64,000 nucleotides of DNA. Source: an uncultured Clostridia bacterium (GTDB lineage Bacteria; Bacillota; Clostridia; TANB77; CAG-508). Positions within the stretch are counted from its first letter, which is position 1. Each line of letters begins with the position of its first letter. The DNA is taken from assembly GCA_947581805.1 (NCBI GenBank), contig CANPVM010000002.1, forward strand, positions 140,290 to 204,289, in the 5' to 3' direction. Under the pieces are notes generated by a model. It did not search any database. It was given only the letters and a program-made list of their open reading frames with translations, and was not told the DNA's origin. Both the position numbers and the translations under genes were made by a program. Shown one piece after another: positions 14,798-15,619 of the stretch.

Positions 14798-15619
14798 TTA
14801 TAATAATGTCTCTCCATTATCACAAGTAAGTATTTGTCCAGTAATACATTTTGATGAATTACTAATTAAAAACATTGCAACATCTGCAATTTCTTTTGCT
14901 GATAAAATTCTTTTACCTTGCAAAGATTGCGAATATAAATTTCCTTTATCGTCAAAATGATTTATATTAGAACAGGTTACACCTGGTGCTATTGCATTAA
15001 CTCTTATCTTTTTATCTATCATTTTTTTTGCCAAAGAATGAGTTAAATGAATCACATTTGCTTTTGACACTCCATATGGTCCATCCATTCCTCGGATTCC
15101 TTCTATTGATGCAACCATAATAATATTTCCTCTTTTCATTTTTTCAAAACATTGTGTGATTATCTCTCTTGTTGCAAAATAAAGTCCACCTAAATTTGTA
15201 TCCATTATTTCATTCCAATCATCAACATTACAATTATTATATTGTAATGGCATATATATGCCAGCATTATTAATAAAACAATCAATATTTTCATTCATTC
15301 TTTTAACTATTTCTTCTACTTTTTCTTTTACTAAGTCTACCTTAGATATATCCCACTGTACTATATCACATTTTAACTCTTTCTTAACTTCTTCCAGTTT
15401 ATCTATATTTCTTCCTGTAATTAATACATTTGCTCCTAAATCTATTGCTTTCTTTGCAATTTCATATCCTATGCCAGATGTACCTCCAGTTACTACGATA
15501 TTTTTGCCTTCAAGCATTTTTTCACTATGAATTTGATTTATCTTTAAATGCGTTACCCCCCCCTTATGTTTTATGTAATCTATAAAATTCTTAATGTATC
15601 TTTTTACCACAATTATCAC
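14798..15619 (-). CDS. SDR-family oxidoreductase #1 (tandem paralog) carrying an in-frame G8 tract near its 5' end
   Basis: It has the motif NIVVTGGTSGIGYEIA and a Y-x3-K active-site region. It is almost identical to the next gene. Codons K-G-G-V are encoded by aag ggg ggg gta. Confidence 0.7.
   Translation of the reverse strand: MIIVVKRYIKNFIDYIKHKGGVTHLKINQIHSEKMLEGKNIVVTGGTSGIGYEIAKKAIDLGANVLITGRNIDKLEEVKKELKCDIVQWDISKVDLVKEKVEEIVKRMNENIDCFINNAGIYMPLQYNNCNVDDWNEIMDTNLGGLYFATREIITQCFEKMKRGNIIMVASIEGIRGMDGPYGVSKANVIHLTHSLAKKMIDKKIRVNAIAPGVTCSNINHFDDKGNLYSQSLQGKRILSAKEIADVAMFLISNSSKCITGQILTCDNGETLL
15556..15563. repeat. Homopolymeric C8 (G8 on the coding strand) tract inside the SDR #1 coding sequence
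   Basis: Read directly from the sequence. Runs of 8 G/C are extremely rare in this roughly 25% GC window. Only three tracts of 8 or more exist, all in the glycan locus. Confidence 0.9.

Follow-up and report, generated by a model that had tools for sequence, protein, structure and literature searches.

A G8 tract in a short-chain dehydrogenase/reductase gene of a polysaccharide cluster is a candidate phase-variation switch in an uncultured Clostridia bacterium

In this study we analysed a stretch of 64,000 nt from an uncultured Clostridia bacterium (contig CANPVM010000002.1 of assembly GCA_947581805.1, positions 140,290 to 204,289; hereafter the window) and examined a run of eight guanines close to the 5' end of SDR#1, a gene for a short-chain dehydrogenase/reductase (SDR) that lies in a cluster of polysaccharide genes. 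This G8 tract is real, non-random and coding, and its sequence features suggest that it is probably a simple-sequence contingency switch, i.e., a site of slipped-strand phase variation of the kind described in Campylobacter. On the plus strand, positions 15556-15563 read CCCCCCCC, and the context on the coding strand is tac ata aaa cat AAG GGG GGG GTA acg cat tta, in which the stretch from aaa to acg encodes K H K G G V T. The first-pass annotation of the window had described an in-frame G8 tract at K-G-G-V codons near the 5' end of this gene, and the sequence bears this out, since the tract occupies nt 48-55 of the 813-nt coding sequence (CDS) counted from the likely GTG start.

The occurrence of such a tract is not what the base composition of the window would lead one to expect. 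The G+C content is 26.2%, and there are no G/C runs of length 6-7, but three of at least 8 nt (8, 8 and 9 nt, at 15556, 17235 and 27724). Under a first-order Markov model, 0.059 runs of at least 8 nt were expected as against the 3 observed, and even a single run of this kind was present in only 123 of 2000 simulated windows. When synonymous codons were resampled according to the codon usage of the window with the proteins kept fixed, at least one run of 8 nt or more appeared in 3% of the trials, and at least three runs appeared in none of 3000. GGG is the rarest glycine codon in the window (6.2%) and AAG a minor lysine codon (12.6%), and the probability of a G8 given the residues K-G-G-V is about 5e-4 when computed from the same codon usage. 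Moreover, all three runs are poly-G on the coding strand and are located within one 19-kb co-oriented polysaccharide cluster (13.7-33 kb) of the 64 kb.

SDR#1 encodes a classical SDR (Pfam adh_short PF00106, E=4.7e-43, far past the cut-off) with the motif TGGTSGIG and the residues S171, Y182 and K186, all invariant in the alignment of homologues. The open reading frame (ORF) extends over 14798..15619 and comprises 273 aa when counted from the first GTG (15619) or 270 aa from the likely GTG (15610). The protein did not reach the NCBIfam cut-offs for FabG 3-oxoacyl-ACP reductase or glucose 1-dehydrogenase (165 bits vs 215 for PRK07231; 145 vs 298 for TIGR01830), and because the SDRs of the cluster fall below every functional cut-off of this collection, only the designation "SDR family oxidoreductase" is justified. 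The layout of SDR#1 is an N-terminal helix, a GG hinge and a Rossmann core from about residue 37. In the AlphaFold2 model (mean predicted local distance difference test score, pLDDT, of 82) the helix covers residues 2-19 and a confident Rossmann fold begins at residue 40; the pLDDT is below 50 over residues 20-30 and above 90 in the Rossmann core. According to this model, the tract therefore encodes a flexible Gly-Gly hinge between the N-terminal helix and the catalytic core. For such a hinge, a missing or an extra glycine (a tract change of 3 nt in either direction) should be tolerated.

The tandem paralogue SDR#2 is 71-73% identical to SDR#1 at the amino acid level and about 80% at the nucleotide level. 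The earlier observation that it spells the homologous residues as aaa aaa ggt gga was correct. The conclusion drawn from it, that the homopolymer is not dictated by the protein, holds as well, because paralogues and orthologues use other glycine codons for the same GG (GGT GGA, GGA GGA or GGA GGG). The position given for the paralogue, 34 bp downstream, needs correction: SDR#2 is separated from the first GTG (15619) by 30 nt and from the likely start (15610) by 39 nt, and it is downstream in plus-strand coordinates only, since it precedes SDR#1 in transcription.

The length of the tract determines the fate of the SDR#1 reading frame. The full protein is read at G8, and G5 and G11 are also in frame. 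With G7, translation would end after 18 codons (KHKGG-stop, TAA), and with G9 after 31 codons (KHKGGGNAFKDKSNS-stop, TAG), so the claim that a slip of a single nucleotide turns this SDR OFF is confirmed at the level of the reading frame. The run reaches the threshold of 7-8 nt or more at which poly-G/C tracts become hypermutable (PMC6321876), and its 5'-proximal position within an ORF is one at which a change in length alters expression.

On this basis we propose the following sequence of events. During replication the G8:C8 run would misalign by slipped-strand mispairing, giving G7 or G9 daughter alleles. A slip of one nucleotide within codons 16-19 would end translation early, so that no Rossmann domain is made, and the opposite slip would restore SDR#1; changes of three nucleotides (G5, G11) would stay in frame and should be tolerated at the Gly-Gly hinge. 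Judged by its gene context, the SDR#1 product presumably acts on a surface structure. If SDR#1 is a tailoring oxidoreductase encoded in a Wzx/Wzy-type polysaccharide operon, switching would yield sub-populations with and without one modification of the surface polysaccharide, and together with the tracts of an O-acyltransferase gene and of a third SDR gene (SDR#3) the three switches could give up to eight glycoforms. We infer from the arrangement that switching actually takes place, that it is reversible and occurs at a high rate, that the SDR has its chemical role in this modification, and that phage or host immunity is the selective agent.

The first-pass annotation had suggested that the tracts at 17235 and 27724 make further tailoring genes of the locus switchable. 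This proved to be the case as far as the reading frames are concerned: the acyltransferase gene and SDR#3 are the genes concerned, and neither is in frame as sequenced. Thus, as sequenced, one switch is ON (SDR#1) and two are OFF by one base each. The two pieces of the acyltransferase gene, of 118 and 250 aa, match positions 1-109 and 120-325 of the Pfam Acyl_transf_3 profile. When the gene was repaired to G9, the product was collinear over 100% of its length with homologues of about 350 aa, and it was 65% identical to its closest homologue, the 351-aa P0123, including the junction (IIWPIFIGGGSDS vs IIWPIFSGGIHNE). The DNA encoding P0123 has an in-frame G6 at the same codons.

With respect to the tract at 27724, the suggestion that it gates a tailoring gene stands, but the tract belongs to the start codon of SDR#3 and not to the middle of the gene. 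At G9 the gene reads MGGG-stop and is OFF. At G8 it reads MGGVRKFCKKIAKFIL..., an N-terminus typical of the family, whose pattern is MG..K..KIAKFILASQPE; this G8 reading (MGGVRKFCKKIAKFILASQPE...) fits the N-termini of homologues of 282-287 aa (MGYKRIIRKIAKFILASQPE...). As the gene for the second polysaccharide pyruvyl transferase ends across the same tract, the outcomes involve both genes. With G8, the transferase has 380 aa and SDR#3 is read from its own ATG; with G9, the transferase has 392 aa and SDR#3 is OFF; and G7 or G10 produces a 660-aa transferase-SDR fusion. The tract may therefore have three states, i.e., a separate SDR, no SDR, or a pyruvyl transferase-SDR fusion. We also noted that at G9 an upstream in-frame ATG (27757), which lacks a Shine-Dalgarno site, opens a 292-aa SDR#3 ORF.

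Table 1. Positions of the poly-G tracts and of the associated genes and signals in the window.
Feature	Position	Strand	Description
G8 homopolymer of SDR#1	15556..15563	- (C8 on + strand)	Codons AAG GGG GGG GTA = K16 G17 G18 V19; in frame, ON as sequenced
SDR#1 CDS	14798..15610	-	813 nt, 270 aa from GTG 15610; identical to database protein P0001
Shine-Dalgarno AAGGAG of SDR#1	15619..15624	-	8 nt before the GTG start (15610); read from the sequence
SDR#2, tandem paralogue	15650..16483	-	Upstream of SDR#1 in transcription; K-G-G motif AAA AAA GGT GGA, without tract
Acyl_transf_3 O-acyltransferase gene	16506..17563	-	Frameshifted at the tract into 118-aa and 250-aa ORFs
G8 homopolymer of the acyltransferase gene	17235..17242	-	Inside the gene, OFF as sequenced (frame lost at the tract); protein of 352-354 aa restored at G9 or G6
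SDR#3 CDS	26879..27734	-	284 aa with a tract of G8; the organism's database gene call is the truncated 230-aa P0242
G9 homopolymer of SDR#3	27724..27732	-	Begins with the G of the start codon (ATG 27734-27732); AAGGAG 7 nt upstream
Polysaccharide pyruvyl transferase #1	13679..14761	-	Immediately follows SDR#1 in transcription after a gap of 36 nt without terminator-like site
Polysaccharide pyruvyl transferase #2	27685..28863	-	Last codons cross the G9 tract; tail 380 vs 392 aa by tract length; G7/G10 fuses it with SDR#3
Co-oriented Wzx/Wzy-type polysaccharide cluster	13679..33031	-	Holds all three tracts

The comparison with related bacteria allowed us to follow the tract across species. The nearest relatives in the genome collections are uncultured Clostridium/Clostridia metagenome-assembled genomes (MAGs), of which one came from rabbit gut. 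MAG contigs of two other species, L002 (CAZASP010000012) and L003 (CANQHU010000002), contain the same tandem SDR pair at 68-69% amino acid identity and with a G+C content of 26% where measured. On each of these contigs one SDR copy has a G11 on the same GG codons (L002 5002-5012, after TGC; L003 7177-7187, after AGC). As assembled, both G11 copies are +1 out of frame with their N-termini, which begin at an ATG with a Shine-Dalgarno sequence, and the tracts are followed by uninterrupted SDR frames of 254 and 252 codons starting VT[YH]L...; the gene callers list these genes as the truncated proteins P0022 and P0023. A fourth relative, P0005, found on four contigs including L163, has the interrupted spelling TGC GGA GGG GTA, and more distant members write the GG as GGT GGA or GGA GGA. 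Thus, the tract is G8 and ON here, G11 and OFF in L002 and L003, and interrupted in L163. Retention of a tract at one site with different lengths and frames and with intact downstream ORFs is, as far as the sequences can tell, the pattern expected of a contingency locus and not of decay or chance.

Several observations weigh against a functioning switch. Among the tract lengths for which switching is efficient in Campylobacter, a G8 is one of the shortest (PMC6321876). Homopolymer lengths in low-coverage short-read assemblies (about 4x for the metagenome contig L001, ENA ERZ27249221) may be off by one, so the ON/OFF calls, and especially the two G11, are provisional. No variation in tract length was seen within the species: the sole other contig, L001, was 100% identical over 6.8 kb and had the same G8 + G8. 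An exact database look-up for the 239-aa protein that an OFF form would give from the internal Met found none on record, and a search at 100% identity for a full-length (ON) acyltransferase or SDR#3 of this organism found only the truncated forms in the database. As the organism is represented on only about four contigs, these within-species negatives are weak. Finally, in a tree built by the unweighted pair group method with arithmetic mean (UPGMA) from the shared C-terminal 208 columns, all pairs were about 65-79% identical and the tract-bearing SDRs did not form a clean single clade. C-terminal identity thus does not demonstrate a single ancient origin of the tract. A scan of metagenome contigs with the SDR alignment gave a best match of 41% identity and no close relatives.

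The strongest alternative to the contingency switch is that the tracts are mutational hotspots without adaptive switching, i.e., that the G runs came about at Gly-Gly codons through drift or expansion and mark the effectively irreversible decay of dispensable tailoring genes. Decay would also leave two of the three tracts of the window and both G11 orthologues out of frame, and it agrees with the lack of observed variation within the species and with the fact that some relatives lost the tract or never had it. However, the downstream frames of at least 250 codons are intact in every OFF copy, whereas random frames at about 26% G+C close within tens of codons. Moreover, three species retain the tract at the same codons although their proteins diverge by about 30%, and the runs of at least 8 nt, all 5'-proximal or at a start codon, occur in one surface-polysaccharide cluster while shorter runs of 6-7 nt are missing. 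We therefore consider decay an unlikely explanation.

Considerably less probable is the possibility that slippage of RNA polymerase or of the ribosome on the G run yields a functional protein at any DNA length, in which case the tract would tune dosage and would not act as a switch. Such slippage could account for the intact downstream ORFs in the out-of-frame genes. Slippage rescue, however, is known for long A/T runs and not for G8-G11. Furthermore, it leaves the clustering of three tracts in surface-polysaccharide genes unexplained, and neither a heptanucleotide slippery site nor a downstream structure was noticed on reading the sequence, although no formal test was made. A precedent for this explanation exists in some AT-rich endosymbionts, in which frameshifted homopolymer genes are rescued by transcriptional slippage (PMC2831843); the tract reported there is a poly(A).

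The first-pass annotation had itself named an observation that would remove the tract from the protein, namely a translation start at the internal Met (MLEGKNIVVTGG, ATG 15517-15515), which would place the G8 in the 5' leader and limit it to acting, if at all, on transcription or mRNA. This start is in frame and 4 codons before Rossmann beta-1, the resulting 239-aa core SDR would be complete, and in the G9 allele only 7 nt separate the stop of the upstream frame from this ATG, which would make some re-initiation conceivable. However, according to Pfam the SDR domain extends from about residue 39 of the ORF onwards, and the tract consequently sits in an N-terminal extension of about 36 residues that is conserved as protein: its consensus IKxxIxYxKxGGxTYLEINQI is kept in more than 25 homologues down to 38% identity, and its two glycines are nearly invariant among the closer homologues. 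The upstream GTG is preceded by a strong AAGGAG with an 8-nt spacer, no Shine-Dalgarno-like sequence stands before the internal ATG, and the Met is Leu in most homologues. Gene callers also chose the long form, and the database call is the 270-aa protein starting at GTG 15610 (P0001). Given the conserved extension, the AAGGAG before the GTG and the lack of conservation of the internal Met, a location of the tract in the 5' untranslated region is very improbable. Even less credible is an artefact of assembly or sequencing in the run or its length, for although the source is a MAG, the coverage of L001 is about 4x and homopolymers are error-prone, the same G8 is present in the independently named ENA contig L001, two unrelated assemblies, from other species, have homologous long G runs at the corresponding codons, and an artefact would not strike Gly-Gly codons of tailoring genes three times.

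The proposed contingency switch resembles several known systems. In Campylobacter, poly-G tracts of 7-8 nt or more are mostly located in ORFs of surface-modification genes, with G on the coding strand (PMC6321876). The tracts described here share with the phasome of Campylobacter jejuni and Campylobacter coli, which covers capsule, lipooligosaccharide and flagellar-glycan genes, the low G+C background, the intragenic poly-G of 7-8 nt or more with G on the coding strand, and the excess over chance (PMC6321876). In both cases a surface-glycan cluster contains several tracts that gate tailoring enzymes and not backbone synthesis, and the frame sets the ON/OFF state; in both, the tract is common to different species and its length differs (PMC6321876). 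In contrast to Campylobacter, the host is a Gram-positive Clostridium-like gut bacterium, the gated genes encode SDRs and an Acyl_transf_3 enzyme instead of O-methyl phosphoramidate (MeOPN) or methyl transferases, the tracts are 8-9 nt long compared with a mode of 9-10, and switching is here a prediction from sequence. The contingency loci of Neisseria and Haemophilus include poly-G tracts in the lgt lipooligosaccharide glycosyltransferase genes and in pgtA, and a poly-C tract in the capsule gene siaD. There, too, slipped-strand mispairing in a 5'-proximal coding homopolymer toggles a surface-glycan enzyme and independent switches combine, but the phylum and the enzymes are different, and switching rates and phenotypes have been measured in those bacteria.

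The same frameshift principle applies to 5' homopolymer tracts in prokaryotic genes generally (PMC2831843, PMC3315296). Among Firmicutes, the 5' poly(A) tract of inlA in Listeria monocytogenes is likewise coding and close to the 5' end of the gene, and through it the product is reversibly shortened to a very short peptide (PMC2831843), although it is a poly(A)7 in an adhesin gene. Poly(G)/poly(C) tracts are generally under-represented, and an excess of them was found in only 9-11 of 99 genomes (PMC2831843). In gut commensals, phase variation of surface glycans is ascribed to inversion of DNA, and the switches described so far in the class Clostridia are invertons (PMC5386303, PMC9286219, PMC12413058). 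Inverton systems such as the capsular polysaccharide promoters of Bacteroides and cwpV, flg and cmr of Clostridioides difficile have the same outcome, heterogeneous surface structures in gut bacteria, but they depend on recombinase-driven, site-specific inversion of promoters, whereas here the element is a coding homopolymer with no inverted repeats or recombinase. In the literature covered by our search, nothing relevant was found on poly-G tracts in Clostridium. Switching by poly-G is well established as a mechanism, and for this group it has apparently not been reported before.

We put forward more tentatively the possibility that a Campylobacter-like poly-G phasome operates on the surface-polysaccharide loci of uncultured low-G+C gut Clostridia, with independently slipping tracts (here those of two SDRs and an O-acyltransferase) giving each clone up to eight glycoforms, the tract at the SDR GG hinge kept across species as a heritable switch and the tract at 27724 perhaps having three states, and that it constitutes a second, inverton-independent mode of capsule switching in Gram-positive gut commensals. 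Surface-glycan phase variation influences how susceptible bacteria are to phages and how they are recognised by the immune system. If the proposal is true, many "pseudogenes" and truncated gene calls in MAGs, such as P0022, P0023, P0242 and the split acyltransferase, would be reversible OFF states, and the within-strain diversity of capsules would exceed the impression given by consensus genomes. The mechanism itself is textbook knowledge, and the gain would lie in its taxonomic and ecological reach, not in the principle.

The gene content of the cluster that holds the tracts is that of a Wzx/Wzy-type surface-polysaccharide locus, as predicted from sequence matches. It includes a Bac_transf priming transferase, glycosyltransferases of GT1, GT2 and GT4, an EpsG (Wzy-like) polymerase-like protein, a fusion of a Polysacc_synt-type flippase with a beta-propeller, a hexapeptide acetyltransferase, an FrhB-like Fe-S protein, a thiamine pyrophosphate (TPP) enzyme, a HAD protein, two polysaccharide pyruvyl transferases, the three SDRs and the Acyl_transf_3 protein. 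The cluster borders on prs at one end and on VanZ, sortase and ArgRS at the other; sortase and DltB-like genes are the Gram-positive markers in the window. No terminator-like sites were found between 13.4 and 17.8 kb, and the promoter scan was uninformative in this AT-rich DNA (37 sites vs 38.9 expected). Simple sequence repeats of other types in the cluster were limited to low-scoring AT-rich repeats. Throughout the window (1-64000) nearly every ORF of at least 110 aa is on the minus strand, and the GC skew is negative in all 2-kb bins (C > G on the plus strand); this strand bias and the negative skew fit a long co-oriented leading-strand gene array.

Two other parts of the cluster deserve mention. 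The minus-strand gene at 17625-20270 encodes an 881-aa protein with a Wzx-type flippase as its N-terminal half and a C-terminal beta-propeller (DUF6923/Kelch-like matches). Flippase and propeller are separate genes in L167 (510 + 371 aa) and L169 (515 + 368 aa) and are fused in L164 (892 aa). Between the glycosyltransferase genes and SDR#3, the minus strand at 23193-26909 encodes a TPP-dependent enzyme of 604 aa and a protein of 627 aa that has a HAD domain at its N-terminus, and these sequence assignments suggest that the polysaccharide may carry an unusual keto-acid-derived or phosphonate-like substituent.

In the relatives, some further length differences came to light. P0019 (241 aa, L162) was considered as an OFF allele of the SDR and was rejected: its contig starts inside the gene, the frameshift is an unrelated one in an A-rich stretch, and its GG is spelled GGA GGA. 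In L162 1-120 the N-terminal extension of P0019 is present but out of frame, upstream of this A-rich stretch at the start of the contig, owing to a frameshift or to an error at low coverage (3.3x). The split of the flippase-propeller gene in L163 compared with L164/L165 was likewise dismissed as a homopolymer polymorphism, since the alignment revealed a deletion of about 70 nt instead (L163 ~3716-3720 vs L164 ~3646-3720, with the identical SDR P0005), which splits the 892-aa gene into 447 + 402 aa. In L169 (4830-5126) and L171 (1464-1619), which have the identical SDR P0018, the next small ORF is 98 and 51 aa, respectively. In three relatives the beta-propeller domain downstream of the flippase contains an in-frame G7 (L002 2620-2626; L003 6828-6834; L163/L164 4697-4703 and L165 3417-3423). 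In L002 its codons are gaa gaG GGG GGa aaa aaa tgg (E-E-G-G-K-K-W), and the positional homology is judged from gene context only; the 881-aa protein of the window is without a G7 run at that place. Finally, just downstream of the SDR pair, L003 carries an (AC) repeat of about 20 units (8869-8908) in codons 9-21 of an Acyl_transf_3 gene (MNETLATVHTHTHTH...); here, in a related organism, the 5' end of a tailoring gene has a simple sequence repeat of a second kind.

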